DNA of 28,452 nt from a virus (IMGVR_UViG_3300036985_000288:1-28452); one strand, 5' to 3'. Positions 128 to 28,417 are shown, numbered from the stretch's first letter. Numbers and translations are program-made. Notes: generated by a model from the sequence alone, not told the origin.

Positions 128-1552
128 GATGCCGAAGGATTGACACAAACAATCGATGTTGATGCGGTTGGAACATACAACGGATACAATTATTTTATTT
201 GGGTTATTGATGCGGTCACTTATACGATGTGGCACGATCCGTTCGACAATTGGTACGTCACAACGGATGGATTGGGCGGAACGGCATTCGTTGCACAATA
301 CAAATCAACATACACCCAATGTCCGATTGCATCAATTCCTACCTGGATCGTTGGTGAATCATTTACAACATTCACAACGGAATTGTGTCCCCCAATCGAA
401 TTGAATTGTGATTGTGGAATAAAAGTCACTTTGAACAATCCGCGTGAAAATATTTGGAATGTCACCGCATTGGGATTGATAAATGGTCGCGCGTATTATG
501 AGTTTATTTTTATTGCAACGGTTTACGAATTCCGTTTGTTTTGGGATACAACGCAATGGGTGATTGTGAACATGATTGATTCGGTTATATTTTGGACGTT
601 GGATTACAACGCAACATGTCCAATTGGAACGGATTGGGTGAATCAAATCGACAATGATTTCACGGCATTGACTGAAAGTGTTAATTGTGGATGTGTTCCC
701 AACGAGGAACGAACCGCGTTTGAATTCCAATCAATCAAATTTCCGCCAATTTTCATTGAACAAAAACGCGGATTAAAAGATTGTTGTTGTGAACAAATCG
801 TATTGGCGGGGGGCGGAACGGAATCATGGAAAAATGACAAATCATCCGCATGGATAAAATTGTCATCGATTGATGATTCGGCATCATTTAGATTATTCAA
901 ATGCGGTATTGGAACAACATACGCACCAACACCAATTCCATTTGTAAATGAACCAAACGCGTATTATACAACAATCAATTGGGCGGATGTTTTGGTTTCC
1001 GATGGTGTTGGAAATTACGAATTGGTTGTGACGTTTAACATTGCGGGGGTTGCGGGACAATTCACATGGGCGGAATACAATTTGCAACAATACACAATCC
1101 AGAACGCATTGACAACGGCGCGTGTTCGCGCGATATTCAACGGATATCACGAAATCGAGGGCATTGATTTCACGGGTTCAAATGTGGAATCAACACATCG
1201 TTTCCATGGGTTCATTGGAAATCGTCAACCGAACACCGAAATCGACAATATCATTTACAACAACCGCGAAATGAAACGCGTTATTCGTGAAAATCTGAAT
1301 GATTACGAAATCACGACCGATCCAGAGGACGAATGCATCATCAAACCATTGGTTGATTTGTACCTTTTGAGCGAAAATGAATTGTTCATTTCAGATTACA
1401 ATGCACACAATCATTCATATCGATACCTGGATATTGCGGTAATTGTAAGCGAATCACCATCAATTGAATACAAACAATTTTCACGAAAAGCGGTGTTGAC
1501 ATGCAAGGTCGCGGATAAATTAAAGAATCAAAGAACATATTTTAACGGATAA
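95..1552 (+). CDS. Putative virion structural (tail-tip) protein with two N-terminal Cys-bounded repeat modules
   Basis: 485-aa ORF that follows the tail genes across the circular junction. Two similar ~100-aa modules (CNCIQIT..GTYNGYNYF..CPI..W and CDCGIKVT..GLINGRAYY..CPI..W). Confidence 0.6.
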   Translation: MCNCIQITYQFDAEGLTQTIDVDAVGTYNGYNYFIWVIDAVTYTMWHDPFDNWYVTTDGLGGTAFVAQYKSTYTQCPIASIPTWIVGESFTTFTTELCPPIELNCDCGIKVTLNNPRENIWNVTALGLINGRAYYEFIFIATVYEFRLFWDTTQWVIVNMIDSVIFWTLDYNATCPIGTDWVNQIDNDFTALTESVNCGCVPNEERTAFEFQSIKFPPIFIEQKRGLKDCCCEQIVLAGGGTESWKNDKSSAWIKLSSIDDSASFRLFKCGIGTTYAPTPIPFVNEPNAYYTTINWADVLVSDGVGNYELVVTFNIAGVAGQFTWAEYNLQQYTIQNALTTARVRAIFNGYHEIEGIDFTGSNVESTHRFHGFIGNRQPNTEIDNIIYNNREMKRVIRENLNDYEITTDPEDECIIKPLVDLYLLSENELFISDYNAHNHSYRYLDIAVIVSESPSIEYKQFSRKAVLTCKVADKLKNQRTYFNG

Positions 1553-1563
1553 AACAAAGAAAA

Positions 1564-1827
1564 ATGGGAACGAATTTAATACAAGTTATAGGGAATTATT
1601 TGACGATTCAAGCGGGACGCGACACGACCGAATTTCAATTGAAAAATGTATTTTTTCGTACGGAAAACGGCGCATTTATCATTCGTGACGTGACGTATCG
1701 TTTAACTATTCCATTTGATGAGGTTGGGAATTATTGGGACGGAAAAGATACATTCACCACGGCATCATTGACAACATTTTTATGTGTCAACACGGGTTCA
1801 TTGGGGTTGCCATTTCAACAAGCATAA
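1564..1827 (+). CDS. Hypothetical protein (end of structural module)
   Basis: 87-aa ORF with an A-rich leader and ATG start, tightly packed with neighbours. Confidence 0.65.
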   Translation: MGTNLIQVIGNYLTIQAGRDTTEFQLKNVFFRTENGAFIIRDVTYRLTIPFDEVGNYWDGKDTFTTASLTTFLCVNTGSLGLPFQQA

Positions 1828-1831
1828 TTGA

Positions 1832-1839
1832 TAAATTTG
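1832..1839 (+). promoter_or_regulatory. Bacteroidota-type -7 promoter box (TAAATTTG) before the lysis cassette
   Basis: Matches the TAnnTTTG consensus; intergenic, 16 nt upstream of the holin ATG. Confidence 0.5.
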
Positions 1840-1855
1840 TATAAAAACGTAAAGG

Positions 1856-2176
1856 ATGAAATTTTTAAACGAATTCGGTGATTTGTTGTCAATGGCGGTC
1901 GGGATGGTCGGGGCATTGCTTAAAGGATTGAAATCACGATTGCATTTCACATCGGTGATTTTGGGAATGATGATTGCGGGTATTTTGACATTTTCAATTA
2001 TCGGTGTCATCGAACAATTTTATTCTACATTGTCCCCGAAATTTATTATTCTGATTTCGTTTTGTGTGGGTTGGGTTGCCAATGAAATCACATCCAAATT
2101 GGATTCCATGGTGAATGATATTTATAATATCTTTATTGATTGGGTAAAAGCAAAATTAAAATCAAAATCAAAATGA
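1856..2176 (+). CDS. Putative holin
   Basis: 106 aa with about three hydrophobic segments and a highly basic C-terminus (KAKLKSKSK); lies upstream of the lysin candidate. Confidence 0.7.
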   Translation: MKFLNEFGDLLSMAVGMVGALLKGLKSRLHFTSVILGMMIAGILTFSIIGVIEQFYSTLSPKFIILISFCVGWVANEITSKLDSMVNDIYNIFIDWVKAKLKSKSK

Positions 2177-2466
2177 AAAAAATCATTGCAATTTTGTTGT
2201 TTGTTGCATGGACTGAATGCATAAACGCAAAACCATTGGTGACGATTACAATTGACACATCTGTCATTCAATCGCAACCATTGGTCATTGATGGTCACAT
2301 GGTCATTGTTGACACAATCATCATTGAAAAGGTCATTGAAAAAACATTCCCAAAAGCAACACCGGATCAACGCGGTGATTACGGGAAAATCGCGGCAGCA
2401 TTCTTTTCGTTTATTTTTGTAATCATGTCCATCATTTGGGGCAAAAAGAAATCAAAAAATGGTTAA
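2173..2466 (+). CDS. Membrane/secreted lysis-cassette protein (possible unimolecular-spanin-like architecture)
   Basis: ATG 2173 overlaps the holin stop (ATGA). Signal-like N-terminus MKKIIAILLFVAWTEC, beta-rich middle, C-terminal TM helix and basic tail. Confidence 0.5.
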   Translation: MKKIIAILLFVAWTECINAKPLVTITIDTSVIQSQPLVIDGHMVIVDTIIIEKVIEKTFPKATPDQRGDYGKIAAAFFSFIFVIMSIIWGKKKSKNG

Positions 2467-3031
2467 AAATTACACGGATAAACAATTGTTGACAAAGGTC
2501 AAATCGTTGTCATCCTTCAAATCAATTCCATCGGGATATTGGATTTTGGGTGTTCAATCAATCCTGGATCAATTCAATACGTTTGACGATAAATTTTATT
2601 TGTTCCATGGTGAACAATTTGTGATGGTGACAACGGGAACAACCAACGCGGGAAAAAACGGGATGATGCAATACGAATCACAAAATCCCGAAGGTGTTGC
2701 CGTCATAAAAACCAACGAATGGTATTATGATGTTTGGCGGTACGGATTGCACAAGGGCAAAATGAGGGCATTAAAGCAAGTTAGAACGTTTTTAATTAGC
2801 CGTGACGGGGATAAAGATGACCGCATCGAGGAAAATGCGTCAAAAGCCGTTATTTGCGGAATCAATTTCCATGCGAACACCTACAATTTAGCGAACCAGG
2901 ATATCAAATCCATCATCGGCGCATGGTCATTAGGTTGTCAAGTTGTGAATGATACACCGAAATATGTTCAATTCATGGATTATTTGCAACCACAAAAGGA
3001 TGTGACGTATTGTTTGATAAAAGAATTTTAG
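2459..3031 (+). CDS. Putative endolysin of L,D-transpeptidase (YkuD-like) fold
   Basis: GINFH...AWSLGCQV resembles the H...SxGC catalytic motif of YkuD-family enzymes; last gene of the holin cassette. Confidence 0.6.
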   Translation: MVKNYTDKQLLTKVKSLSSFKSIPSGYWILGVQSILDQFNTFDDKFYLFHGEQFVMVTTGTTNAGKNGMMQYESQNPEGVAVIKTNEWYYDVWRYGLHKGKMRALKQVRTFLISRDGDKDDRIEENASKAVICGINFHANTYNLANQDIKSIIGAWSLGCQVVNDTPKYVQFMDYLQPQKDVTYCLIKEF

Positions 3032-3043
3032 TACATTTACAAA

Positions 3044-3127
3044 CGCACAAGTTTAGTTTATTAGGTATTTTTTCTTTTCATGTAGAAAATTTAGGTCACA
3101 AGAATCCCCGTATCCACGGGGGTTTTT
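3044..3127 (+). ncRNA. Candidate small antisense RNA
   Basis: Lies between a promoter-like TACATTTA (3032-3039) and a terminator. 3070-3083 is perfectly complementary to 7951-7964, which spans a start codon. Boundaries are inferred. Confidence 0.4.
3101..3127 (+). terminator. Rho-independent terminator after the lysis cassette
   Basis: AGAATCCCCGT-ATCC-ACGGGGGTTTTT hairpin with T-run. Confidence 0.8.
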
Positions 3128-3183
3128 GCGTTTATACAATCTTTTTTCAATCTTTTTTCACTTTTTTTTCTTGATAAGTGTTG

Positions 3184-3210
3184 TATATTGATTTTATGTT
3201 TTTATATTTG
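3184..3210 (+). promoter_or_regulatory. Putative early promoter 1 (-7 box TATATTTG at 3203-3210)
   Basis: TAnnTTTG match; near-identical copy at 7754-7779; phased T-tracts upstream (3142-3169). Confidence 0.7.
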
Positions 3211-3247
3211 TGAACCCAATGACGGGAAAAAACCTAAAAACAAAAAC

Positions 3248-3556
3248 ATGAAAGCAACACAAAACACCGAATTTAAAATTGAATCAAAAGAATTGTATAT
3301 TTCACCAATGCGCGAACGTAATTTGGAAAAATACGGAATGGAATCAGACCAATGCGAATGTTGTGGGAAATTGATGGCGGACGATGAAAGTTTATATGTA
3401 CACATGGGTGTAGATTGGATGGCATACAATATTTTTGAAAGCGAAATAATTGATGGACGTGATTTCATTAAAGGAACAAAAATTGAATCGCAAGGATGTT
3501 TCCGCATTGGCAATTCATGTGCAAAAAAAATGAAAGGATTCACATTTTCAATGTAA
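3248..3556 (+). CDS. Early hypothetical protein, probable Zn-binding (CECC...GCFRIGNSC)
   Basis: ATG 3248 after an A-rich leader. The TTG start at 3188 in the ORF track lies inside the promoter. Confidence 0.7.
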   Translation: MKATQNTEFKIESKELYISPMRERNLEKYGMESDQCECCGKLMADDESLYVHMGVDWMAYNIFESEIIDGRDFIKGTKIESQGCFRIGNSCAKKMKGFTFSM

Positions 3557-3567
3557 AAATACACAAC

Positions 3568-3591
3568 GGGGGGTGCGCATCCACAACGCAC
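3568..3591 (+). promoter_or_regulatory. Compact GC-rich RNA element (possible H-type pseudoknot)
   Basis: GGGGGGTGCGCATCCACAACGCAC: GTGCG/CGCAC and GGG/TCC pairings inside an AT-rich spacer. Confidence 0.35.
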
Positions 3592-3612
3592 ATTTACAAA
3601 ACATCAAATCAC

Positions 3613-3729
3613 ATGAAAAATTTTATCAACCAATTCATCCCGCGTGATCCAGAACAAATGGAATCCTTCATTGGAATGTTGTGCGGCATCGCAATCCTTG
3701 CAATCGTATTTTATTTTTATTCAATTTAA
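3613..3729 (+). CDS. Small single-TM membrane protein (38 aa)
   Basis: MKNFINQF...FIGMLCGIAILAIVFYFYSI, preceded by the leader CAAAACATCAAATCAC. Confidence 0.6.
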   Translation: MKNFINQFIPRDPEQMESFIGMLCGIAILAIVFYFYSI

Positions 3730-3743
3730 CAAATCAAAACATC

Positions 3744-4010
3744 ATGAACACACCAACACCAGAACAAAAGGAAAAATTTGCATTGCATCAATCGTTGATT
3801 GGATACCATGTCACATTGAATGCATACAAAGCAAATGATGTAATTGAAATCATGAACGCGATGTCAAGCATGTTGATATCAATTGACCATATGGAAAATC
3901 AAATGTTGAAACATGGTTCAAAGCATATTGGCACACCCGAATATCATTCAACGCGAACCGTCATTGATTCATTCAAAATGGACATCATCAAAAAAATCAC
4001 GCAATTATGA
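3744..4010 (+). CDS. Early hypothetical protein
   Basis: ATG 3744 after the TCAAAACATC leader, in frame with track ORF 3681-4010. Confidence 0.65.
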   Translation: MNTPTPEQKEKFALHQSLIGYHVTLNAYKANDVIEIMNAMSSMLISIDHMENQMLKHGSKHIGTPEYHSTRTVIDSFKMDIIKKITQL

Positions 4011-4168
4011 CACAATCAATCAAATGCGCTGAATGCCATGGAACGGGCATCATCGAAGGATACACGAATGATGGGGATTATTCAATCCCCTTCCGTGACG
4101 AATGCATCGAATGCGATGGAAATGGAACAATTGAAACCGAAATTGATGATGACGATGATGACATTTGA
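4007..4168 (+). CDS. 53-aa DnaJ-type zinc-finger mini-protein with acidic tail (not in ORF track)
   Basis: Manual translation: MTQSIKCAECHGTGIIEGYTNDGDYSIPFRDECIECDGNGTIETEIDDDDDDI. Two CxxCxGxG motifs; ATGA overlap with the upstream stop. Confidence 0.8.
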   Translation: MTQSIKCAECHGTGIIEGYTNDGDYSIPFRDECIECDGNGTIETEIDDDDDDI

Positions 4169-4307
4169 AATCCGTTTTTTTAACGTATGCCCCAAAACAT
4201 TCAAACGAAAATTGGAAACGATCCAGGTTCATGCATACGACCAACAACACGCGGTTCGCATTGTTGACCGCCATCATTCACTTATCAAATCAATTCGAAG
4301 GATATGA
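4155..4307 (+). CDS. Small hypothetical protein
   Basis: 3' part of track ORF 4038-4307 (MMTFEIRFF...). Start is 4155 or 4158, since the upstream part is occupied by the Zn-finger gene. Confidence 0.55.
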   Translation: MMTFEIRFFNVCPKTFKRKLETIQVHAYDQQHAVRIVDRHHSLIKSIRRI

Positions 4308-4501
4308 ACGAACAAACCAAAACACACATTGAACATGCGAATGAAATCAAACAATGGAAACGATCGGTTGATGTTCGCGACCGTTCCATTGTCATTTTAC
4401 ACAATACAATCGATAAAGAACGCAAACGAATTAAAGCATATCAACGCGAGGTTGAAAAATTAAAAGACCAAATCATCAAATTAACATCACCAAATTATTG
4501 A
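4304..4501 (+). CDS. Small coiled-coil hypothetical protein
   Basis: 65 aa, ATGA-coupled, charged helical C-terminus. Confidence 0.6.
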   Translation: MNEQTKTHIEHANEIKQWKRSVDVRDRSIVILHNTIDKERKRIKAYQREVEKLKDQIIKLTSPNY

Positions 4502-4503
4502 AC

Positions 4504-4665
4504 ATGAAATCAAAACGAACAATCAAACAACCAGGGCAACAAACCAATATCATCAAACCACAATTTGCGCATGGAATCACACACGCGGATCGCAAAAAAT
4601 GGTGGAACAATTACGATGCATTATTGGTGAATAGAATCAGCGAAATAAAAAAGGCAACATCATGA
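4504..4665 (+). CDS. 53-aa basic hypothetical protein (not in ORF track)
   Basis: Manual translation MKSKRTIKQPGQQTNIIKPQ...RISEIKKATS. Fills the gap exactly, with an ATGA overlap to the next gene. Confidence 0.55.
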   Translation: MKSKRTIKQPGQQTNIIKPQFAHGITHADRKKWWNNYDALLVNRISEIKKATS

Positions 4666-5042
4666 TGACACCAGAATCAAACAATTTCATGTCAAATGTT
4701 TATGACATCATCGAAAAATACAAATTGACACGGCGCGACCGCCATCAAGCAATTATTTACAAACGATATTATTTGTATCATCAATTGCACATGGCGAAAT
4801 TATCATTGTCACATATTGGATTGTTGTTCAACAAAGACCATGCAACGGTTATTCACGGGATAAAAATGCATAAGCAATTCACGAAATCAAAGGATGCGAT
4901 TTATTTGCATCATGTTCAACCCGTGATTGATGACCTGGATCACAAACCACAACCACGATTTTTGATTGATGACATCATGAATTGCGAATCGATGGATGAA
5001 TTGTTGATAATAAAAACCAACATAAAAAGGAATATTTATTAA
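4662..5042 (+). CDS. DnaA C-terminal (domain IV)-like HTH DNA-binding protein
   Basis: LSLSHIGLLFNKDHATVIHG resembles the DnaA domain IV signature (SLxxIG..F.RDHTTVxH). Confidence 0.75.
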   Translation: MMTPESNNFMSNVYDIIEKYKLTRRDRHQAIIYKRYYLYHQLHMAKLSLSHIGLLFNKDHATVIHGIKMHKQFTKSKDAIYLHHVQPVIDDLDHKPQPRFLIDDIMNCESMDELLIIKTNIKRNIY

Positions 5043-5049
5043 ATTAGCG

Positions 5050-5141
5050 GTGTTCGGTCTCACAATATGAACACATGGCATTATTGCCCCTTTATTTGAA
5101 TTGCAACGTGAGACCTGCAATGATAATGAAGGGGTTTTTTT
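5050..5141 (+). ncRNA. Candidate cis-regulatory RNA: two hairpins with complementary loops plus terminator U-tract
   Basis: Stem 1 GTGTTC/GAACAC with loop GGTCTCAC; stem 2 with loop GTGAGACC; T7 at 5135-5141. Confidence 0.6.
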
Positions 5142-5160
5142 ATGCACTAAAATCAAACAA

Positions 5161-5913
5161 ATGGCAACCAATAAAAAATCATTTTTGCTTTATGTGGATT
5201 TGATTCACACAATCGAAAAATTGCCCGATGAATACGCGGGGAAATTATTTAAACACCTTTTGGAATACGTCAACGACCGCGATCCGGTCACGGATGACAT
5301 CGTTGTCAACATTGCATTTGAACCAATCAAACAATCATTGAAAAGGGATTTGGTGCGATGGGATGAAACCAGAGAAAAGCGAAGCAAGGCGGGAAAAATG
5401 AGCGCGGAAAAACGCAACAAAAGTGAACACATGTCAACACATGTTGAAAATATTGAACACATGTTAACACATGTTGATTTTGTTGAACACAATTCAACAC
5501 AAGTCAACACACGTCAACACACGTCAACAAATCCAACTGATAATGTAAATGTTAATGTAAGTGTAATAAATAATAATATAGATGATGTCGATGTCAAGAC
5601 AATCGACCATATCGATTTTGATTCTTTATTGAAATTGATAAACGACACATTCAAACGAAATTTCCGCACAATCAATTCAAAGAACCGAACCGCGTTCATG
5701 GCGCGATTGAAACAAGGATATCGAAAGGATGACATTGCGACCGCCATCACCAATTGCAAATCGAACGAATATCATGTGAACACGGCATATCGATATTGCA
5801 CACCCGAATTCTTTTCACGGGCGGATGTGTTGGATAAATATTCAGCGGTGACGGTTCCCGACAAAAACACGAACAAACCAAATGCTAAAAATGTCCCATG
5901 TTGGAATCGTTAA
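5161..5913 (+). CDS. Phage replication initiator / replisome organizer (DUF6291-like N-terminus)
   Basis: MATNKKSFLLYVD...AGKLFK N-terminus, central low-complexity iteron region, C-terminal domain with YCTPEFF; directly upstream of the helicase. Confidence 0.75.
   Translation: MATNKKSFLLYVDLIHTIEKLPDEYAGKLFKHLLEYVNDRDPVTDDIVVNIAFEPIKQSLKRDLVRWDETREKRSKAGKMSAEKRNKSEHMSTHVENIEHMLTHVDFVEHNSTQVNTRQHTSTNPTDNVNVNVSVINNNIDDVDVKTIDHIDFDSLLKLINDTFKRNFRTINSKNRTAFMARLKQGYRKDDIATAITNCKSNEYHVNTAYRYCTPEFFSRADVLDKYSAVTVPDKNTNKPNAKNVPCWNR
5424..5580. repeat. Putative replication origin: 10-bp-period AACAC iterons plus AT-rich tract inside the initiator gene
   Basis: AACAC at 5426, 5436, 5456, 5466, 5486, 5496, 5506 and 5516; AT-rich 5541-5580. 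Same layout as lambda ori inside gene O. Confidence 0.7.
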
Positions 5914-6896
5914 AAGGGTTCAAAGTTACATCCGCATCGGATGTGTTGAACAAATTGCAATCGTATCGAACAACGTATCATGACAAAGGGAAATATTTGG
6001 GATTTCCTTCCATTAACAACCATTATTCGATGCAATTGGGGAACGTCACGGATTGGACGGGATATCCAATATCGGGAAAAACACAATTTTTGATGGAAAT
6101 GTTGATGAACACATCGGTGATGTACGGATGGCGGCATTTGATATATTTTCCCGATGTTGGTTCAAATGTGGAAATCATTGCGGATTTGATTCACAAAAAA
6201 ACGGGCAAATCATTTGATCCAGGTTCACCGAACCATATCAGCGAAAAGGAAATATTTTCCACATTGGATTGGATTACGCACCATTTTTTGGTATTGACCA
6301 AACATGATGTAAAAGCAAAAATGACACCCATGGATTTTTGGGACATGGCGGTCAAAATCAAAAACGATTCTGGATTGGAAACCGCATCCATTGATTCATG
6401 GAAGGATTTGAATCATCCGTATAATGAACATGGGGGATATGCACAATATTTGGAAATGGTGTTGCCGTATCGAAATGCCATTGCGGAAAATAACGACCTA
6501 CATTTGCACACCATCATTCACCCGAAATTGACCGAAAAGGAAAATGGCAAAAGGAAACCGCCCGTTCCGTATGATTTGAAAGGGGGTTCGGAATGGTTCA
6601 ATTCTGGAAAATGTATGATTACAATTGACCGCCCCGATTTCGAAACCAATGAGGTTGATATTTATTTCAACAAAATCAAACCGCGTTCCATCGGAAACAT
6701 CGGTCAAATTACGATGCGATACGATGTTGATGCGGGACGATATTACGAATCAAACGACATCCATGGAATTGAACATCGTCATTATGCGGGTGAACAAACC
6801 GAACCAACAACAACAATCAATTTGTATGGTGGCAATTCATGGAAGGGAAAAACGGATGATGATGAATTCACACCAATCAATGACGTACCATTTTAA
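5898..6896 (+). CDS. SF4 (DnaB/T7 gp4/Twinkle-like) replicative helicase, no primase domain
   Basis: Walker A GYPISGKT, Walker B-like ASIDSW, IIHP.K and YDLKGGSEW motifs; acidic C-tail ending DVPF. Confidence 0.8.
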   Translation: MLESLKGFKVTSASDVLNKLQSYRTTYHDKGKYLGFPSINNHYSMQLGNVTDWTGYPISGKTQFLMEMLMNTSVMYGWRHLIYFPDVGSNVEIIADLIHKKTGKSFDPGSPNHISEKEIFSTLDWITHHFLVLTKHDVKAKMTPMDFWDMAVKIKNDSGLETASIDSWKDLNHPYNEHGGYAQYLEMVLPYRNAIAENNDLHLHTIIHPKLTEKENGKRKPPVPYDLKGGSEWFNSGKCMITIDRPDFETNEVDIYFNKIKPRSIGNIGQITMRYDVDAGRYYESNDIHGIEHRHYAGEQTEPTTTINLYGGNSWKGKTDDDEFTPINDVPF

Positions 6897-6907
6897 TCCT
6901 GGATCAC

Positions 6908-7952: not shown

Positions 7953-8522
7953 ATGAAAAGAAAAGGAATCAGTCAAACGACAATTGCCCGTTACATGGCG
8001 GCATTTATCGAAATCAAGGCGGCATTGGATGCAAATCCAAAAGCAAACACAACACCAATTGCGCGTGAATTCAAAATCGGGGCGCATCCAATTACGTTTT
8101 TGAAAAAATTGGGTGTCATTGAACACGCAAAAGGCGGTCACAAAAAATGGGTTGGAAACAATCCCAATGTTGCGATGGTCATTCAGATTGCCGAAGCGGT
8201 TCACAATTACCATGCTGAATTGCGTTCACGCAAATCAAAGGGTGAATTGTTCACCAAAACAAAGAAACAACCGCAAATCGCACCAATTGCCGTTGAAAAG
8301 GAATCACACAAAGCATGGAAGGAATCATTTGGTAAACAAATCGCGGAAAAATCGGATGTGTTGATCCAGGAACAACCATTTGACCAATCGTTGGTGTCCG
8401 AATTTATCAATCACGATGAAAAACCAAAGGTTGAACATGGCGAATTGACATCATCAAAACCAAAACCACGCACATTTGAGGTCAAAATATTTGGCATCCG
8501 TTTATTTACAATCAATTACTAA
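7953..8522 (+). CDS. Hypothetical basic protein, possible winged-helix N-terminal domain
   Basis: 189 aa; TTPIAREFKIG..ITFLKKLGVIEH..GGHKKWVG resembles a wHTH. Function inferred. Confidence 0.6.
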   Translation: MKRKGISQTTIARYMAAFIEIKAALDANPKANTTPIAREFKIGAHPITFLKKLGVIEHAKGGHKKWVGNNPNVAMVIQIAEAVHNYHAELRSRKSKGELFTKTKKQPQIAPIAVEKESHKAWKESFGKQIAEKSDVLIQEQPFDQSLVSEFINHDEKPKVEHGELTSSKPKPRTFEVKIFGIRLFTINY

Positions 8523-10272: not shown

Positions 10273-10283
10273 TCCTGGATCAG

Positions 10284-10496
10284 ATGAAAGCAAAAGATTT
10301 AATGAACATCAATGTGGAAACGAAACGATTGATTGCCGAATACATGGAAAAAAAGAACATGACATTGGCATCATTCGCGCGGTGTGCGGGTGTTCATCAA
10401 TCCCAATTGTGGATATACATCCATGGGGACATTAACAAAGGATTACACGGCAACACAATTGAAAAGATTGGCAAATTTTTAAATGAAAATCCGTAA
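10284..10496 (+). CDS. Cro/CI (XRE)-type HTH regulator
   Basis: 70 aa; MTLASFARCAGVHQSQLW...TIEKIGKFL. Confidence 0.75.
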   Translation: MKAKDLMNINVETKRLIAEYMEKKNMTLASFARCAGVHQSQLWIYIHGDINKGLHGNTIEKIGKFLNENP

Positions 10497-10505
10497 TTTG
10501 CCATT

Positions 10506-18607: not shown

Positions 18608-19507
18608 ATGGCATTAGGATGTAATTGCAATTCTGGATTGTCCAACACGGGACGTCCAAATTGTGTTCCGTTACAAAGTGTAACGAGTAAATTGATAATG
18701 GTTCCGCTCAAAGCAAATGACGGTTCATTAAACTACATTGATTTAACTTTGCCCCTTCCAACATGGGATGATTTAATCAATGAAGCGGATGCATCAAAAC
18801 GATGGTTTCCGTTACCAAATTTCGAAAATGTTGAATTGCCAAAGGCGGATTCACAATTCGAGGAAGCAAACAGCGGTCGAATGGTGTTTTTGCGTCAAGG
18901 CAAAAGGTCATTCAGCGGTGAATTGTGGGCGGAAGATTCCACACCTACATTGTTGGGTAAATTACAAAACAATCGTTGTGTTGATTTCGGTGTTTACATC
19001 GTTGATGTGAATGGAAATTTGGTTGGTTCAAAGGTAAATGGCGGATTGTATCCAATCCCCGTTGACAATCCATCATTCAACCCAACATTCGTGTTCGCAA
19101 CGGATTCAACAACACAAAAAATCATGGTCACTTTTGATTTTGACCGATTGTTTGACGAATCAACGATGTACATGATAACACCAACGGAAGCGGGAATCAA
19201 TTTCAACGATTTAACGGGATTATTGGATGTGATTTTTTCCGTTCCTGGATCAACCGCAACCACATATCAAGCGACATTGGCATTGGAATATGGAACGGCA
19301 TTGAATCCAATCCAATTTGTTGGGGCGGTTGCCGCGGATTTCCAATTGTTTAACAATGATACGTCATCAATCGTTTCAATTTCAGTAAGTGAAGCACCAT
19401 CGGGAACGTATGTGTTCACATTTATTGCACAAACAACGGGTGATGAAATGGTGTTATCGGTTATCAAACCAGGTTATGATGGTGAGGTGACATTTTTAGC
19501 ATTGTAA
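18608..19507 (+). CDS. Putative major tail (tube) protein
   Basis: 299 aa, beta-rich, with an Ig-like C-terminal part; lies between the neck genes and the tape measure, with a strong terminator shortly downstream. Confidence 0.7.
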   Translation: MALGCNCNSGLSNTGRPNCVPLQSVTSKLIMVPLKANDGSLNYIDLTLPLPTWDDLINEADASKRWFPLPNFENVELPKADSQFEEANSGRMVFLRQGKRSFSGELWAEDSTPTLLGKLQNNRCVDFGVYIVDVNGNLVGSKVNGGLYPIPVDNPSFNPTFVFATDSTTQKIMVTFDFDRLFDESTMYMITPTEAGINFNDLTGLLDVIFSVPGSTATTYQATLALEYGTALNPIQFVGAVAADFQLFNNDTSSIVSISVSEAPSGTYVFTFIAQTTGDEMVLSVIKPGYDGEVTFLAL

Positions 19508-20213: not shown

Positions 20214-20631
20214 TGACCTTCCATTGTTCAATTGGATTCAATGCCATAATGGACATTTGGAATTCACGCGAATTGGTGTTCCTGGATCACCCGAACAAGA
20301 CATCGAAACATGGCAACAAATATATGACGATTACATCCGTGAATTCGGATTGAATCAGATGCAAAAAAAAATGTTTGACGCGATGAAAAAAAAGGCATTA
20401 TTGGAATTGGATTTTGTAATCACGGGCAATCGGTTCAAATTGACCGAAATTGAAATTGCCATTGCAAAATTGGATTCAATGTTAATGCATCGCGGTGATG
20501 GCATCACCATCGACCAAATGTTGGTTCATTTGTCCAAATGGATTGGTCATTGGGTAAATTCTAAAAACATAACGACACGCGAATATTTCACACTAATTGA
20601 CCAATATGGCAAAGCAAATAAAAGCAAATGA
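20134..20631 (+). CDS. Putative tail assembly chaperone (start uncertain: 20134 or 20158)
   Basis: Helical ORF immediately before the tape measure gene; overlaps both neighbours. Confidence 0.55.
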   Translation: MKTKHDWQMNWFKGFKSKPREYYKGIDDLPLFNWIQCHNGHLEFTRIGVPGSPEQDIETWQQIYDDYIREFGLNQMQKKMFDAMKKKALLELDFVITGNRFKLTEIEIAIAKLDSMLMHRGDGITIDQMLVHLSKWIGHWVNSKNITTREYFTLIDQYGKANKSK

Positions 20632-23623
20632 TTTATTTGAGAATGAAGACATTTTCAAAGGGATACGCGAATCAGCTGAAAAAACGATATCAACCATTGA
20701 TAAATTAAACGCGGAATTTAAGCAAACCGCCGAAGGATTGAAAAGCACCATCGGAAATGCTGATTTGGGTTCATCAAAAGGAATCAATGAATTCACATCG
20801 GCAACCACAAAGGCGAACCAGATTCAAAAGGATGCAATTGAATTGTCAAAATTACGCGCCGAAGCGGAAAAACAATCCGCCATTGCGCAACGTGAACAAT
20901 CAAAGGCACAAGCCGAAGCATTGAAAACCGCCACGGCTGAAGCAAAAGCCAAAGAACAACAAGCCAAAGCGGCTGAAAAGGTTCGCAAGGCGGCGGATGA
21001 TGAAGCAAGTGCATACAAAAGATTGGAAAAATCAACGCGCGACCTTAAAAACCAATCAAAAGAATTGGGGGCGCAAATGGTAAAATTGGAACAAACGGGA
21101 CAAACCAATTCGTATGCATACGAAAAATTGGCGAAACAATATAGTGATGTTACAAATGAAGCGCGTAAAAATGACAAAGCATTAAAAGAATTGGATAAAA
21201 CCGTTGGGGACAATTTCCGCAATGTTGGTAATTATGAGGGCGCGACAAAAGGATTGAAACAAGAATTGCGGCAATTGACACAAGCATTGCAACAAATGGA
21301 AACGACCGATCCGCGATTCGCTGAAATGGCGCAACGGGCGGGGGATTTAAAAGACCAAATTTCCGATACACAAGCCGTCATCAAAGCAACGGGGGGAACG
21401 GCGGTTGAAACATTGTCAAAAGGGATTGCGGGTGTTGGTTCGGTTGGTATTGCGGCATTTCAAGGTGTTGAATCATCCATGGCATTGATGGGTGTGCAAT
21501 CCGAAGCGGTCATGGAAACAATGATGCGATTACAAGCATTGGCGGGATTGGGTGACGCATTGGAAGCATTGGGGGGATTGGGTGATAAATTGACCGAAAT
21601 CAAAGCGGCATTTGTTGCAACGGCATCCAAAATGGGATTGTTCACCGCGGCAAAAGAGGTTGATGTATTGGTGACCGAAGGTCAAATTGTAGCAACGGAA
21701 ACGGCAACGGTTGCAACGTCTGGATTGGGTAAAGCAATGAAAGCATTGCCAATTGTTGCGATAATTGCGGGATTGGCGGCATTGGCGGCGGGTGTTTACT
21801 ACTACATGTCAAGCAATGACAAAACCGCAAAAGCAATTGAAAAACGGCATAAAGCCGAAAAGGCGGCGCGTGAGGAATCAGAAAAGGCAAGGGATACAAT
21901 TGCCAAAGAAAGCACCGCATACGTTTCATTGATTATGCAATTGAAACAAACCAATGAAAATTCCAAAGAACGAAAGGATTTGATTGGAAAAATCAATGAA
22001 CAATATGGAACAACACTAAAAAATTTAAGTGATGAAACCGCGTTCCAAAATCAATTGAATGTTGCCGTTCGAGATTACATCGAATATCAAAAAAACAAAT
22101 ATACATTGGCGGCAAACGAGGATTTAATTACACGAAATCTAAAAAAACAACAGGAACTTGAAAAGGATATTTCCAAAATGGATAAAGAAAAAATTGGAAG
22201 CCGTATCGTATTGCAAAATAAATACAACGATTTAATTTTGAAGGGTGTGTCCCAATCCGAAGCATTGGACAAAAGCGGATTAGGTACATGGGATGAAAAA
22301 TATAAAAGTTTAACCGATGAATTGGGGGCGGCGCAAAAAAGGATGACCAATTACGCAACAACATCATTGAAATTGACAACGGAAACGGAAGATAAATACA
22401 TTCCCGTGACTGAAAAGGCAACAAAAGCAACCAAAGAAAAAACGAAATCACATCAAGATGCCAATGAAGCAATTCAAAAAACTCTTGATTTGATGGAATT
22501 GGAAAATCAAATCATTGAACAAACGCAATTATACGAAACCGAAAAGGACATCGCATCCGCGATCCAGGCGCAAATGGAAGGCATCGGAAAAACGGGACAA
22601 TATCAAATCGATTTAATTGACCAATTGTTGACGCGTGAACATGATTTGGAAGCCGCGCAAATCAGACGTAAATATGAAACACAATTAGCATCCAAAAACG
22701 CATTGGAAGCATCCAATGCACAAATGGCAATGGATTTGGAATTGTCACAATTAGATGATAAAACAAAGGAAAAACGGAAACAAACATTGACGGATTTGGA
22801 AACCGCGCAAGAAGATTATGCGGCAAAATGCGTTGAAACGGAACAACAAGCCGCGGATAAAATTGCTGAAATAAACAAAACACAATGGGAAAATTCCGCG
22901 AAATTTGCCGAACAAACCGCTAATTTTTTTATTGAACAAAGCAACAAAAAGATTTCACAATTGGATAAAGAAAGCGAAGCCGCGCAACAACAATATGATA
23001 CATTATCTGAATTGGCGGCAAACGGAAATATCAACGCAAAGGAATCATTGGCGGAACAACAACGCATCATAAATGAAGCAAACCAACGCAAAGAAAAGGA
23101 AATGCGCCGTCAACAACGGATTAAATTGGCGGAATCAGTATATTCAACGTATGCGGCAAAGGTTGCGTCCGGATCAAAGAACCCATTGCAGGAAACCATG
23201 ATGGAAACGGCATTGTTGCAAACATTTATTGCATCCCTTCCAACATTTGACAAAGGAATCGAAGACACGGGAACGAATGGTCGCGGATTAGACGGCAAAG
23301 GGGGATTCCTTTCAGTATTGCACCCGAACGAACGTGTTGTCCCGAAATCATTGAATGAACAAATCGGTTCAATGTCCAATGAATCATTGGCTAAAATGGC
23401 AATGGAATATCAAGCGGGGAAATTGGTTCATGGTCATAAGGGTGCGGAATCAATGCAATTGGCGGTGTTGGTCAATGAAATGCGTGATTTGAAATCAGTC
23501 ATTCAAAACAAACCCGAAACCAACATTGAATTGGGTGAAATAACGCAATCAATGATGGAAATTGTTAAGACAACCAGGGTTGGGAACACGCATACATTTA
23601 ACCGATACAAAGTAAGGAAATGA
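20606..23623 (+). CDS. Tail tape measure protein
   Basis: ~1005 aa Ala/Glu/Lys/Gln-rich coiled coil, RNVGNY motif, central hydrophobic segments. Confidence 0.9.
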   Translation: MAKQIKANDLFENEDIFKGIRESAEKTISTIDKLNAEFKQTAEGLKSTIGNADLGSSKGINEFTSATTKANQIQKDAIELSKLRAEAEKQSAIAQREQSKAQAEALKTATAEAKAKEQQAKAAEKVRKAADDEASAYKRLEKSTRDLKNQSKELGAQMVKLEQTGQTNSYAYEKLAKQYSDVTNEARKNDKALKELDKTVGDNFRNVGNYEGATKGLKQELRQLTQALQQMETTDPRFAEMAQRAGDLKDQISDTQAVIKATGGTAVETLSKGIAGVGSVGIAAFQGVESSMALMGVQSEAVMETMMRLQALAGLGDALEALGGLGDKLTEIKAAFVATASKMGLFTAAKEVDVLVTEGQIVATETATVATSGLGKAMKALPIVAIIAGLAALAAGVYYYMSSNDKTAKAIEKRHKAEKAAREESEKARDTIAKESTAYVSLIMQLKQTNENSKERKDLIGKINEQYGTTLKNLSDETAFQNQLNVAVRDYIEYQKNKYTLAANEDLITRNLKKQQELEKDISKMDKEKIGSRIVLQNKYNDLILKGVSQSEALDKSGLGTWDEKYKSLTDELGAAQKRMTNYATTSLKLTTETEDKYIPVTEKATKATKEKTKSHQDANEAIQKTLDLMELENQIIEQTQLYETEKDIASAIQAQMEGIGKTGQYQIDLIDQLLTREHDLEAAQIRRKYETQLASKNALEASNAQMAMDLELSQLDDKTKEKRKQTLTDLETAQEDYAAKCVETEQQAADKIAEINKTQWENSAKFAEQTANFFIEQSNKKISQLDKESEAAQQQYDTLSELAANGNINAKESLAEQQRIINEANQRKEKEMRRQQRIKLAESVYSTYAAKVASGSKNPLQETMMETALLQTFIASLPTFDKGIEDTGTNGRGLDGKGGFLSVLHPNERVVPKSLNEQIGSMSNESLAKMAMEYQAGKLVHGHKGAESMQLAVLVNEMRDLKSVIQNKPETNIELGEITQSMMEIVKTTRVGNTHTFNRYKVRK

Positions 23624-25338
23624 GGCATTTATTAAATGGTGTTGAAATAACACCGCGCAACCGCGATTCCATCGGTGTCGTGTCCACATTTGAAGGAAAT
23701 CCCGATGAATTGTCATTGAATGTTGATTCAATTGTGTTGCCACGCGAAGCATATGCGATGGTAAAACAACACATTGCAACCATTGGATTGTTCGAAGGGA
23801 TTCCCTATTCGGTCGAATCGGGCGGTGTCACATTGGATTATTACATTGATTTAACCGATCCAGGAAACACATACAAATCCTTTGAATGTGAATTGAAAAT
23901 CAAACGGCGCAAGGCAATTGACAATTTTAGAGATAATGCCGCGGGAACATCATTCGAATTATTGTTGAAACGCGATGTTGAATTCCCAACATTCAATGTC
24001 CCATATGTGATAATCAAAGATAATCAAGTTGAATTGGCATTGATTACGGGCATCACATTATACATGATGACATCGGCATTGATTCAATCAATAAAAGATT
24101 TGGCAACAACATTATCGCAAGGGATTCAAGCATCAACACCAAATGCGGGTGTTCCCCCTTCCATCGATGTTGGTGACATCATCGCATACATCATAAATGT
24201 GACCGCGCAAATTGTATTTATTGCGGCGCAATTGGTCGCAATCATTCAGATGGCAACCAAATTTTATTCGTTGATTTTTCCGCCAATCCGTAATTTATTG
24301 GGATGCACAATTTGGGATTTGATGCGTGTGGGTTGTGAACAATTGGGATATACATTCAATTCAACATTGGCGGTTCAATATCCAAATTATACGATTTTGC
24401 CCGTTCCCCTGGTTCGCAATCGCAAATCAATTTTTGATTGGATTCCCGAAGAATTAACCGCACCATTTAACAAGGGTGTGCCATCATCATCGGACACGAC
24501 ACCAACAATTGGGACATTGTTCGATGCGGCGGAAATATTATTCAATGCGCGAACGCGTGTTGTGAATGGTGTTGTCCAATTTGAACGGCGCGATTGGTGG
24601 GCGAATGTCACACCGAACAATATCATTCCCGCGCTGAATTTACAAGCCGAACGAACGGATGAATTTTCATACAATACGGATGAGGTGTGGAAACGATATT
24701 ACATCCATTACAATTTGGATACGATGGACATCCACACCATGGATAAAATTTATGATTATCATGATGCGGAATATTCAACCGAACCAACAAATGTTGTCAA
24801 TGCCGATTTGGTATCCATCAAGGGATTGAACGATGTCAACATTCCATTTGCAATGGGTGCGCGTAAAGAAAATTTGAATTGGTTGGAAAAATTAGTCAAA
24901 GGAATGTTTGAATTCATCGATTTTTTGACGGGAATTTTTGGCGGCGGAACAAATTTCGCAACCAAAATTGAGAATCGAAAAGGTGTGTTGATGGTGTCGC
25001 AAAATTATTTCACAACAACAAAATTATTGTATTGCATTAACGGCAAACAACAACCAGATTATTTAGATTTTATGGCGGCGCGTTCGATATGGGGGAAATT
25101 TCACTACATCAATCAGATTCAATTGAATGATTATGTGATAAAAAATGAAGCGCGTATCCGAATGACGCAATCCGATTTCGTAAATTTGTTAAATAATAAC
25201 TTTGCCGAAATTAACGGGGTGATGTGTGAAATTTTACGAATCGAATGGATTGATGAAAAATCATTTGCGCAAATCACATATCGCGAACGGAATAATTTCG
25301 CAATTGGCAAGGTCAACACGTTAGTAATTAACGATTAA
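23620..25338 (+). CDS. Putative tail-tip / hub protein
   Basis: 572 aa, ATGA-coupled to the tape measure gene. Confidence 0.6.
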   Translation: MRHLLNGVEITPRNRDSIGVVSTFEGNPDELSLNVDSIVLPREAYAMVKQHIATIGLFEGIPYSVESGGVTLDYYIDLTDPGNTYKSFECELKIKRRKAIDNFRDNAAGTSFELLLKRDVEFPTFNVPYVIIKDNQVELALITGITLYMMTSALIQSIKDLATTLSQGIQASTPNAGVPPSIDVGDIIAYIINVTAQIVFIAAQLVAIIQMATKFYSLIFPPIRNLLGCTIWDLMRVGCEQLGYTFNSTLAVQYPNYTILPVPLVRNRKSIFDWIPEELTAPFNKGVPSSSDTTPTIGTLFDAAEILFNARTRVVNGVVQFERRDWWANVTPNNIIPALNLQAERTDEFSYNTDEVWKRYYIHYNLDTMDIHTMDKIYDYHDAEYSTEPTNVVNADLVSIKGLNDVNIPFAMGARKENLNWLEKLVKGMFEFIDFLTGIFGGGTNFATKIENRKGVLMVSQNYFTTTKLLYCINGKQQPDYLDFMAARSIWGKFHYINQIQLNDYVIKNEARIRMTQSDFVNLLNNNFAEINGVMCEILRIEWIDEKSFAQITYRERNNFAIGKVNTLVIND

Positions 25339-25339
25339 A

Positions 25340-25555
25340 ATGGAACATTTAAAACAATCAATTGACCAATTATCGGTCATCCTGGATCGCGTCAAATTGG
25401 AACAATCACAAATGATTTCTAAATTGACACCCGAACAAATTGCAATGGTTGCACCCATTCAAGCCGATGTGACAAACGCATTGGATGCATTGAAAAAAGG
25501 GGATGCCGATTTCATCAATAAATTACAAAAAAAATATGCCAATCCAGATAAGTAA
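25340..25555 (+). CDS. Small helical hypothetical protein
   Basis: 71-aa ORF tightly packed in the tail module. Confidence 0.6.
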   Translation: MEHLKQSIDQLSVILDRVKLEQSQMISKLTPEQIAMVAPIQADVTNALDALKKGDADFINKLQKKYANPDK

Positions 25556-27806
25556 TAAACAATTCGCGGATGTTTTTTCAAACGTCACATCGTATTATCA
25601 AGCAAATGCGGGTGACCGAATCGCGGTTGAATTAGATTTGACCGAATGTATCCGTGTTCAATCGGGCGGGGCGAACAATTTTTCCCTTGATCCAATCAAC
25701 AACATCATCATTTGGGCAACGGGAAATTTCCTTGATGAAGGATTCCGCGACAACGATGATGTTGAAATAAATGTGTACACAAATGGCGGTTCGATTATTT
25801 CGTCAACGGTTACCAATGTAACAAATGTCACCGCGAACCAATTGGATGTGAATTCGATTCCCGTTTGGTATGATTTCACCGCGGGGGAAATCCTTCGTGT
25901 GACGGTTACGGGACGCAAACGCGAGGGATTGATTGTCAATTTGAACCATGTGCAAAATGGCGCAACGGGTACGAAATTTTCATTGATTGATGGCGAGGTC
26001 ACAACATTCACATTTGATATTTCGGGAACGACAACGGGTGACACCATCACGGGAACGCAAGTTGGAAACCGTTCGGGGCAATTTGATTGCATCGTTGATA
26101 TTACGGACAACACCATTTATCCAAATGATGTGCGCAATTATCAATTATCAATGTTGGTGATCCAGGCGGGACAATACAACGAATCATCATTCGATACATC
26201 GGGCGCATTGAAATTGTTTGTTCAAACCAATTGGCAATCGTTATTGGGTGAACCATACAATCAATTAACATTCACATTTTCAGAGGATGCGAACACGGGG
26301 TGGTTCAACCAGGCATACAACATTGGAACACCCGCGGGAACAATTGTTCAACAAATTACATCATTGGATTATGCAATACCAACATCGGGACAATTCGTCA
26401 TTGATTGGTTGTCATCATCCGATTGGGGCATTGGTGGCGCGTATTATTCAACCGATGATGCGTATTATCGCAATCGACCATTTTCACAATCGCAATTGTC
26501 GATGGTATTGCCATCAACACCATTGGGATATGGTTCGGCATTTTCATCACAATTAAATGAGGATGGTGCGGCATGGACGATGAATGTGACGGGTGTCACA
26601 ACCGTTGGAACAATATCAACATTTGATTTTGTATTCACACCAAATGCGGCATTTAACACATTCATGGATGGACGTGTGATTGGTGACCGAACAATGTATA
26701 TTTGGGTAAAGATTGACAACATCAATTTATTGATTTATTCGGGGCAATTGACCAAATCACCGCCCGTTGCGGGTGAATTATTGGTGGCAAAATCAACATT
26801 TTTCGACCATGGTCAAAATTACGATTACATCACTGATTCAACAACGGGATTTATTGGTGATATCGAGGATGATATTGAATTCGGTGGGGTGTTTTTGCTT
26901 GAAAAGGGTGTGATTTATGATTCATTTACGGGGCGAATCGAAGCATTTAACAATGTAACGGGTGAAAAATTCACTTTGCATCAAGCATTTTATGATTTGT
27001 CATCCATTCCATTCAACGGAACAAACCAAATTATTTATCAGCAACAACCTATTTTGACGCAATTACCAACGACATCGGACAAAAGGGATTCAAGGTTGGA
27101 ATTGTCACCTTCGGATGACACAATAACGCATTACGGGGTATTGTTTACATTGCCGTTTTTGTATCGATGGGAATATTGGTTAGCACAAATCAACGCGGAT
27201 GCCGATTTTTATCCTTTTGACCAAACGCGAAATTGGTTTCCGTATGCGAACACAACCAATTGGAAAATTCGATTGCATTGCGAAGCGGTGACGGGCGGAT
27301 TGGCATACGTTTTTGACAACGATTTGACATTGAAAAATTACGCGTCCAATGCTGATATTGACCAAACAATGGAATTGATTATCAATTCAACAAATGATGT
27401 TGTTGGTGTCGTTGTGGAAAATGAATTGATGCGTGTTATTGCATATCATGAATTGACAAATGGCGAAATATGGGATGCAACGAACATATGGGGAATGATT
27501 ACCATCGAACCATATGAAAATGCGCCGCGAAATATCATATCATCGGCAATCGGATATGATGGAAATCCGAACAATCCATTGACACCATTAACGGGGGGAA
27601 TTGGTTCGGTCACACCAATCACATATCCATCACCAGAAATTGCGCGAATGGAATGCTATTTCAATCCCAATTTGGTCAATCTAACAAATGGGGTTAAATT
27701 TACGATAAAAATAAAGGGTTGCACGACATCAAAAGATTTGTTAAAAATCACAACAAGGAATGACGAAAAAATCACGACCGATAATCAATTTAAAATTATA
27801 GCATAA
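25536..27806 (+). CDS. Large beta-rich minor tail protein
   Basis: ~756 aa from ATG 25536; rich in Thr/Asn/Gly/aromatic residues; tail module. Confidence 0.65.
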   Translation: MPIQISNKQFADVFSNVTSYYQANAGDRIAVELDLTECIRVQSGGANNFSLDPINNIIIWATGNFLDEGFRDNDDVEINVYTNGGSIISSTVTNVTNVTANQLDVNSIPVWYDFTAGEILRVTVTGRKREGLIVNLNHVQNGATGTKFSLIDGEVTTFTFDISGTTTGDTITGTQVGNRSGQFDCIVDITDNTIYPNDVRNYQLSMLVIQAGQYNESSFDTSGALKLFVQTNWQSLLGEPYNQLTFTFSEDANTGWFNQAYNIGTPAGTIVQQITSLDYAIPTSGQFVIDWLSSSDWGIGGAYYSTDDAYYRNRPFSQSQLSMVLPSTPLGYGSAFSSQLNEDGAAWTMNVTGVTTVGTISTFDFVFTPNAAFNTFMDGRVIGDRTMYIWVKIDNINLLIYSGQLTKSPPVAGELLVAKSTFFDHGQNYDYITDSTTGFIGDIEDDIEFGGVFLLEKGVIYDSFTGRIEAFNNVTGEKFTLHQAFYDLSSIPFNGTNQIIYQQQPILTQLPTTSDKRDSRLELSPSDDTITHYGVLFTLPFLYRWEYWLAQINADADFYPFDQTRNWFPYANTTNWKIRLHCEAVTGGLAYVFDNDLTLKNYASNADIDQTMELIINSTNDVVGVVVENELMRVIAYHELTNGEIWDATNIWGMITIEPYENAPRNIISSAIGYDGNPNNPLTPLTGGIGSVTPITYPSPEIARMECYFNPNLVNLTNGVKFTIKIKGCTTSKDLLKITTRNDEKITTDNQFKIIA

Positions 27807-28417
27807 TGGGAATCAAAATAAATGAATACACAAACGAAATATTTGCCATCAATGATTTGGATTATTTTGATTCGGATGCATGGGATGGTGTAGGTTTTAA
27901 GTCAAGCAAATTAAGCGGGGCAAATTTAAAAACGCAAGTTGAAGCATGGGCGGGAAAAAAATTCGGTTCGTTTTTGGATAATAACACCCAAACATGCGCA
28001 TCTGGAACAATTACGGCAATGCAAACAACAACATCGGATTCATTTAATAACGGCGTTATGGTTGGTCTTGACGGATTATCGAACTATACTTTGTATAGTG
28101 TAACCGATCCAGGTGTTTATAATGTGCAATTTTCGGCGCAATTAAGCCGCGTGACGGGCGGATCGGCACAAACCATTTCAATATGGTTGCGAAAAAATGG
28201 AACGGATGTCCCAAACACGGCAACACATGTGAGTTTACAAGCAAACGCGGGTAAATTGGTCGCGGCATGGAATTTTTTCATTGACATGATAACAACGGAT
28301 TCCATTCAAATCATGTGGTCACAAAATGGGGCAATCAATTTATTGGCTGAAACACCCGATTTGGCATTGCCGCATCCCGCGATTCCTTCCGTAATTGTCA
28401 CCATCAATCAATTGTAA
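27806..28417 (+). CDS. Putative tail fibre / receptor-binding protein with C1q/TNF-like jelly-roll C-terminal domain
   Basis: PGVYNVQFSAQL..ISIWLRKNG..AAWNFFI..DSIQIMW beta-strand pattern. Confidence 0.6.
   Translation: MGIKINEYTNEIFAINDLDYFDSDAWDGVGFKSSKLSGANLKTQVEAWAGKKFGSFLDNNTQTCASGTITAMQTTTSDSFNNGVMVGLDGLSNYTLYSVTDPGVYNVQFSAQLSRVTGGSAQTISIWLRKNGTDVPNTATHVSLQANAGKLVAAWNFFIDMITTDSIQIMWSQNGAINLLAETPDLALPHPAIPSVIVTINQL

Follow-up and report, generated by a model that had tools for sequence, protein, structure and literature searches.

Short words that recur through a genome far above expectation have been described in several systems, the closest being HIP1 (GCGATCGC) and the alternate HIPs of cyanobacteria; why such words exist is a decades-old question. 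As described in the excerpts of PMC4390886 and PMC5861425 on which we draw, these are strongly over-represented octamers with a GATC core that lie in genes, are spaced non-randomly at about one per kb and are linked to methyltransferase targets. Here we analyze the viral DNA stretch IMGVR_UViG_3300036985_000288 (28,452 nucleotides; its whole length is called the window below), in which the octamer GATCCAGG, read as CCTGGATC in the other orientation, occurs 21 times at distances far more even than chance, a pattern that we term a lattice. HIP1 is palindromic and cyanobacterial, whereas the phage word is asymmetric and stands in a phage of 28 kb that probably infects Bacteroidota and is otherwise purged of GATC. 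The periods given for HIP1 in those excerpts are 10-90 kb, whereas the phage word shows nearest-neighbour exclusion at 0.5-1 kb. HIP1 is described there as conserved; the phage word is conserved above background between the window and a sister genome, and at background in a second pair of phages. Unlike HIP1, the phage word also appears to have arisen independently in several phage lineages.

Three further systems invite comparison, each cited here from part of its source. The uptake sequences of Pasteurellaceae and Neisseriaceae (USS/DUS; PMC2817400) are likewise asymmetric, present in both orientations and more evenly spaced than random, and they accrue by point mutation and recombination, altering peptides; however, they favour preferred codons, whereas the phage word uses rare ones and is built on a restriction/methylation core in a phage genome. 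Subcluster B3 mycobacteriophages show an unexplained, genome-wide excess of GATC/GGATCC confined to one phage subgroup, but GATC is 4-fold enriched in them and 4-fold depleted in the window save in one context, where it is evenly spaced (PMC4841201). In Cluster O mycobacteriophages, a 17-bp dyad repeat also occurs in tens of exact copies genome-wide, some of them genic; it is a long dyad that frequently falls between genes and has its highest density at one end, whereas the phage word is short, asymmetric, genic in 19 of 21 copies and uniformly distributed (PMC4351075). The phage word thus resembles HIP1 and uptake sequences statistically, yet it falls outside HIP, being neither palindromic nor cyanobacterial, and outside Chi, being orientation-independent. 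No description of it was found in the open-access literature, to which the search was confined.

Copy number and coding context of the octamer

An exact count gave 11 copies of CCTGGATC and 10 of GATCCAGG, and no others in the window. The minus-strand copies lie at 342-349, 2563-2570, 4934-4941, 6898-6905, 10274-10281, 11127-11134, 12672-12679, 15522-15529, 19244-19251, 20281-20288 and 25381-25388, and the plus-strand copies at 4220-4227, 6216-6223, 8363-8370, 11578-11585, 17219-17226, 18432-18439, 22561-22568, 23857-23864, 26159-26166 and 28106-28113. The original prediction, made from the sequence alone, had listed these 21 copies, and every coordinate was exact. Its rough expectation of less than one copy agreed with the 0.4 given by an order-2 Markov model, and its remarks that the word includes an otherwise avoided AG/CT step (rho 0.23) and that copies occur in both orientations and mostly in genes were likewise borne out, 19 of the 21 being genic; the exceptions at 6898 and 10274 each occupy an 11-bp intergenic spacer. 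Its suggestion that several copies extend toward the palindrome GATCCWGGATC failed, as no copy reaches it.

The excess is not a by-product of the encoded proteins. The 19 genic copies compare with a mean of 2.1 (maximum 6 in 1000) in synonymous shuffles and 1.4 (maximum 5) in junction-preserving shuffles. When the proteins and all 5-mer counts were kept fixed, the mean was 4.8 (maximum 7 over 90 correlated sweeps). The enrichment thus persisted, whereas its disappearance under codon- and dipeptide-preserving shuffles had been proposed as a refutation. The word is present in all six strand/frame combinations, and its coding contexts are varied (DPG 4, IQx 5, RSR 1, PGS 3, LDx 5 and TWI 1, with 2 intergenic); the single reading frame that would have pointed to amino-acid pairs was therefore not seen, and an amino-acid or codon artefact was ruled out by the protein-preserving nulls together with this use of all six combinations. 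The word makes use of rare codons and holds 5 of the 28 CAG, 5 of the 15 CTG and 3 of the 18 CCT codons of the genome.

Spacing of the copies

The 21 copies amount to about one per 1.4 kb, and the coefficient of variation (CV) of the gaps between them is 0.45 (P=9e-5 against random placement), which answers the spacing test proposed with the prediction. The smallest gap is 451 bp (P=3e-4), and the largest, predicted at about 2.9 kb, measured 2,850 bp. Exclusion between strong sites (weaker ones are described below) extends to about 650 bp, with 2 pairs against 9.6 expected in the window and 0 against 9.0 in the sister genome, designated G001. Copies in opposite orientation also exclude one another in four genomes (P=0.011 in the window, and 0.003, 0.013 and 0.006). 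Above 700 bp the gaps are still under-dispersed (P=0.02-0.04), and gaps over 3 kb number 0 against 4.8 expected. At 33 positions the word could arise with no change of protein, and 19 of these are occupied. After two positions overlapping occupied ones were dropped, the 12 unoccupied synonymous positions lay nearer existing sites than the 19 occupied ones did (334 versus 812 bp, P=0.001).

GATC with a graded flank as the unit of the signal

GATC is depleted in the window (42 against about 173 expected), and what is left lies almost wholly in the context YGATCCR, which holds 40 of the 42 GATC of the window and all 49 of G001; the two window sites outside this rule are at 4362 and 10566. Below the octamers stands a second tier of four plus-strand GATCCAGA sites, at 1319-1326 and 3646-3653 in wide gaps and at 13647-13654 and 14930-14937 in the largest gap, followed by 15 weak YGATCCR sites with GATC at 236, 2365, 4588, 5281, 7656, 9638, 14701, 16376, 17695, 17981, 20055, 21308, 23172, 25689 and 28161. 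The weaker GATCC sites occupy the gaps among the strong ones (P=0.003; P<5e-5 in G001), GATCCAGA most clearly, and strong-weak pairs closer than 650 bp occur at chance level (17 versus 18.3 expected).

The octamer had been read as an overlap of Dam- and Dcm-type targets, GATC and CCWGG, and this part of the prediction was not supported. The 16 lone CCWGG of the window are not spaced around the word and are conserved at background level (9 of 16 versus 8.4 expected). The mirror word GATCCTGG/CCAGGATC, expected if W were used symmetrically, has 0 copies in the window and uses 0 of 32 opportunities (11 of the 32 overlap a used site); the overlap GATCCTGG is missing from all five lattice records. 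Nowhere in the window does a pyrimidine follow GATCC, and for this reason the missing mirror word taken alone leaves a role for CCWGG possible; GGATCC likewise has 0 copies. In the pair of phages G008 and G009, described below, the core GATCCA is invariant, and the next G and the GG are optional; the graded consensus was found in three lineages. Because weak GATCC sites fill gaps, lone CCWGG are unspaced and unconserved, and the mirror is unused, the unit of the signal is GATC with a graded one-sided flank C-A-G-G, and lone CCWGG lies outside it.

A related restriction of context was seen for CCGG. All five CCGG of the window, within weak YGATCCR sites, overlap GATC at the outer C, as do 9 of 10 in G001, and in the family member L239 all 7 CCGG lie inside CCSGG. 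In G002, a relative at 75% identity, G stands beside the outer C in 10 of 10 CCGG and 13 of 13 CCWGG (43% expected). We take this confinement to overlap contexts to mean that these sites are retained where a second enzyme modifies one C, and hence that the C of GATC is probably modified in the hosts of the window phage. The G002 pattern is in its own right a clean case of one methylation licensing the site of another enzyme.

Comparison with sister and outgroup genomes

G001, which is 90.8% identical to the window, also carries 21 copies. Aligned sites are intact in 17 of 20 cases versus 10.9 expected (P=0.005), and third codon positions are unchanged at 44 of 47 sites in the word versus 326 of 396 in the flanks. 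The three aligned sites that are not intact differ by two or three bases each, never by one. All copies are common to both genomes except those at 342, 11578, 22561 and 23857. G001 lacks the copies at 342 and 11578 and has copies 507 and 395 bp away, respectively; the closeness of these compensating gains is weak individually (P=0.08-0.24 each). The copy at 22561 lies in a tape-measure segment that cannot be aligned to G001, whose own non-homologous segment has one copy, as does an insertion specific to G001. With G002 as outgroup, the site at 342 (three differences from both sisters, Val to Thr) and the flank of that at 23857 (Ser to Gly; GATCC with another flank in the sisters) were gained in the window lineage with a change of amino acid, and some sites derive from non-GATC ancestors. 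Amino-acid identity to G002 was 29 of 64 under the word versus 209 of 362 in the flanks, a difference that is not significant (P=0.08).

G002 itself has 0 copies of the word, and 215 other loci of the family (redundant ones counted) have 10 copies in 2.16 Mb. A scan of exact words found no comparable 5-9-mer in any other of 44 longer relative loci, or in G002 or G005. A candidate sister word in G002, AATCGAGG (16 copies), was not recovered by the enrichment-plus-spacing scan and was dropped. Two AG-poor family members, L117 and L124, lack GATC, CCGG, GGCC and CCWGG altogether. At four-fold sites, transversions exceed transitions between the window and G001 (about 0.12 versus 0.10), and likewise between G008 and G009.

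The same pattern in other phages

The pattern recurs beyond this pair. L239, which is 67-69% identical and groups apart from the window in a quick version of the capsid tree, has 4 copies in 5.4 kb at places non-homologous to those of the window, and 12 of its 13 GATC are GATCCA; it is a small case, chosen post hoc from 94 loci, and 2 of its 4 copies encode Asp-Pro-Gly. A methyltransferase search led to G008 and G009, in which no more than 6 of the 40 window proteins had a match, at 24-43%, and no head or terminase gene was among these. GATC is kept at 16 of 133 expected sites in G008 and 23 of 159 in G009, GATCCA accounting for 38 of these 39; the spacing CV is 0.46 and 0.45, respectively, and no gap is shorter than 771 bp. 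Genic GATCCAGG is enriched 7- to 8-fold (4 versus 0.6 expected in G008; 6 versus 0.7 in G009). Positions 1-5300 and 31900-36833 of G009 form an end-redundant stretch, in two non-identical copies with differing GATC sites; these redundant ends are possibly two strains joined in assembly.

As judged from these sequences, the lattice appears to have arisen independently in several phage lineages. Its presence at other positions in unrelated phages, together with its absence from the relative at 75% identity, points to a cause on the side of the host.

More generally, of 21 non-redundant records with depleted GATC, 9 showed it over-dispersed (7 of 19 once the lattice phages were set aside), and depleted CCGG was so in 2 of 4. 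Other depleted palindromes mostly were not, and the 29 non-GATC cases had a median CV of 0.94. In L446, L105, L418, L423, L425 and L438, GATC is strongly depleted yet evenly spaced, with no preference for AGG. A scan of viral contigs for a close-pair pattern, which is biased against even spacing, found no lattice in the 120 stretches examined (40 of them short-flanked) out of an estimated 390 or so.

Phage-encoded writer and reader candidates

The statement that the phage encodes no recognisable methylase is true of the window. Its sisters, however, carry a C5 DNA methyltransferase where the window has a deletion scar at 10493-10509 (plus strand); the scar retains the last codons and stop of the gene of G001 and G002, which indicates that the gene was deleted in the window lineage. 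The G001 enzyme (394 aa, PF00145, E=1e-62) fills the slot between the window genes at 10284 and 10506, and its G002 homologue has a different variable region. Contigs of sequencing runs X2, X3 and X8 cover the gene piecewise, with a different second module in X2 and X3, and a contig of X1 joins across. The C5 methyltransferases of this phage group are modular, and those of G001 and G008/G009 have modules A and B1 in common. As a writer, B1 was unsupported, because it co-occurs with the lattice in only one of seven other lineages carrying it. We read the link between methyltransferase and lattice as one that would reflect shared hosts and not a writer.

A family of modular phage C5 methyltransferases, probably multispecific and with variable modules that have been shuffled, is also found at L149:6228-7412 and in L395-L473. 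Module C goes with relaxed avoidance of GGCC and CCWGG (9 of 60; P about 1e-3, uncorrected), and corresponding links join GCNGC to modules F/N and GGNCC to modules K/N; such associations offer a route from genome composition to methyltransferase specificity.

As a reader, the gene for a DnaA domain IV-like helix-turn-helix protein (4662-5042, plus strand) was considered. It fails to track the word: the same recognition segment is present in lattice-free G002 and is similar family-wide, and the homologue in G008/G009 is just 29% identical. Only one gene, of 109 aa, is present in the window and G001 and missing from G002. An atlas search with a 189-aa protein returned only sub-threshold helix-turn-helix leads.

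Possible causes of the lattice

The excess of copies, the new GATC, the rare codons and the conservation together require a positive force; the lattice is real and maintained by such a force, and the even spacing means that the force must saturate with distance. Tentatively, and with a probability of roughly 0.36, we favour a ratchet of the HIP1 type, driven by distance-limited and probably methyl-directed repair in the host. According to section 3.4 of PMC4390886, which sets out the HIP model of Elhai, methyl-directed repair favours new sites until there is about one per 1000 nt, and the excerpt adds that no bias acts close to an existing site; our exclusion to about 650 bp and under-dispersion beyond 700 bp fit this roughly 1-kb scale. 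Applied to the phage, some host strains would restrict GATC, making it costly, and only a protected context, in which the C of GATC would be modified, would survive. In replication mismatches and in heteroduplexes of Erf/exonuclease recombination, repair would be biased toward whichever strand carries the better-marked site, provided that no second site is in range (about a kilobase). Sites and their CAGG flank would thus accumulate to a density of about one per 1-1.5 kb and increase no further, with writer and reader both encoded by the host. Of the earlier proposal of a HIP1-like, methylation-linked or selected site, then, the positive force, the roughly 1-kb even spacing and the occurrence in unrelated phages speak in favour, and the Dam plus Dcm part is not supported.

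Several observations weigh against the repair ratchet. In G008 and G009, GATCCA stands at its neutral count (15 versus 15.3 and 21 versus 18.9), and the 15 of 23 GATC common to both match background conservation. Under a null with a hard minimum distance, the largest gap does not stand out (P=0.08-0.43), and the extra evenness above 1 kb is of marginal significance (P=0.04-0.14). In both genome pairs, synonymous divergence increases away from a site (0.147 to 0.209, P=0.018; 0.138 to 0.184, P=0.023), but inside genes the gradient is weaker or lost (P=0.06-0.55), and it is not transition-specific, so that it is weak support for repair. Among 292 control words with similar counts, 8 match or exceed it, and linkage or recombination blocks could be its cause. 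Finally, MutH is described as limited to some gamma-proteobacteria (PMC4390886, in the part drawn on), so that an analogue would be required.

The positive force might instead be selection for a mark of self, in that a defence helicase or nuclease of the host, scanning incoming DNA, would be stopped or repressed by modified GATC; one mark per about kilobase would be needed, and extra marks would not be kept, each GATC risking restriction in other strains. This somewhat unlikely account predicts the same spacing, gap filling and convergence; strong first-order selection could pay for the rare codons, and the intact aligned sites and unchanged third positions shared with G001 fit it as well. DISARM, described in the excerpt used as repressed by methylation and not as activated by sites (PMC9142583), and DndFGH, which translocates on and nicks DNA lacking phosphorothioate, one Dnd system using GATC (PMC10470545), are partial precedents; MANTIS, as far as its description was available, selects against sites. 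Yet no system requiring evenly spaced marks was found in the literature searched, GATC is missing altogether from many family members, and G008/G009 show no excess conservation. Unlikely, too, is the bolder form, in which a missing-self check in some Bacteroidota hosts would destroy DNA with no modified GATC(CAGG) over a distance of about a kilobase; the evenly spaced lattice would then be a passport that unrelated phages have convergently written into their genes. An improbable alternative dispenses with positive force: two-site, looping restriction at GATC would purge close pairs and tolerate isolated sites, and the survivors would drift to a cleavage-resistant flank. Looping of two sites is described for Sau3AI (GATC) and HpaII (CCGG), and the optimum loop ranges, depending on the enzyme, from <75 to almost 500 bp (PMC1474071, in part). 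The over-dispersion of depleted GATC and CCGG across records agrees with this, GATCCA and GATCCG totals are near neutral, and a hard-core null accounts for the largest gaps. Such restriction may explain that general over-dispersion, but not the word excess: it gives no account of the 9- to 13-fold excess of GATCCAGG, of sites derived from non-GATC ancestors, of rare codons or of conservation above background. Moreover, the supposedly safest sites repel most while strong-weak pairs sit at chance, and the regularity continues beyond 700 bp.

It is quite improbable that the lattice docks a protein of the phage, be it the DnaA domain IV-like protein, a winged-helix-like one (7953-8522) or its own C5 methyltransferase as writer. 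A monomeric reader would account for an asymmetric, graded word; the DnaA box has the core ATCCA in common with it, and G001 and G008/G009 share two variable methyltransferase modules. A phage-encoded reader is nevertheless disfavoured because no candidate tracks the word: the DnaA-like segment is identical in G002, the window has lost the enzyme, B1 is rarely accompanied by a lattice in other lineages, the X2 and X3 strains differ in the second module, and only the 109-aa gene sets the window and G001 apart from G002. Very improbable, in our view, is a drive like that of uptake sequences or Chi, in which word-bearing fragments would be preferentially taken up or rescued and recombined. The phage does have Erf, exonuclease and NinG genes. 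Chi acts in one orientation, and opposite-orientation exclusion in the four genomes (P=0.003-0.013) therefore speaks against it. Uptake sequences are likewise non-palindromic, present in both orientations, more even than random and able to reshape proteins (PMC2817400, as excerpted). No uptake or Chi word of Bacteroidota was found in the open-access literature searched. The lattice occupies genomes of 28-37 kb and is recent (absent at 75% identity), polymorphic among strains and convergent, and for this reason the repair ratchet, the self-mark and the restriction side-effect would be separable by experiment. If true, GATC-directed repair outside MutH bacteria, or a defence needing spaced marks, would be new biology.

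Genome, host and other features of the window

The window is a complete circular phage genome with a unit of 28,324 bp, the 128 bp at 28325-28452 (plus strand) repeating its start as assembly overlap. A single coding strand carries terminase, portal, protease, capsid and tail genes together with Erf, exonuclease, SSB, NinG, helicase and the DnaA domain IV-like protein; no tRNA genes were found in the window. The SSB is of the DUF3127 type, which only Bacteroides thetaiotaomicron has among 14 control genomes, and all 32 matches of a tail-region protein are to Flavobacterium phages (about 27-31% identity). On these grounds the host is probably one of the Bacteroidota, and the word is itself a possible handle for host prediction. 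A prophage and host search gave two contigs of metagenome-assembled genomes, probably misbinned, both with ordinary word density. Strains related to the window are present in sediment and water metagenomes.

A 122-aa ORF with cysteine pairs at 3188-3556 matches no protein family, and G001, G002 and G005 all lack a homologue of it. The central tape-measure segment at 21799-22889 aligns to neither G001 nor G002, indicating module exchange. Across positions 1-28324, the extreme depletion of AG/CT is accompanied by that of TA (rho 0.43), and GGCC, CTAG, GGACC, GACCC, CCAAG, CCTGA, CCAGY and CTCC are absent. The avoidance profile of G002 is very unlike that of the window, which suggests a recent host shift with wholesale rewriting of codons.

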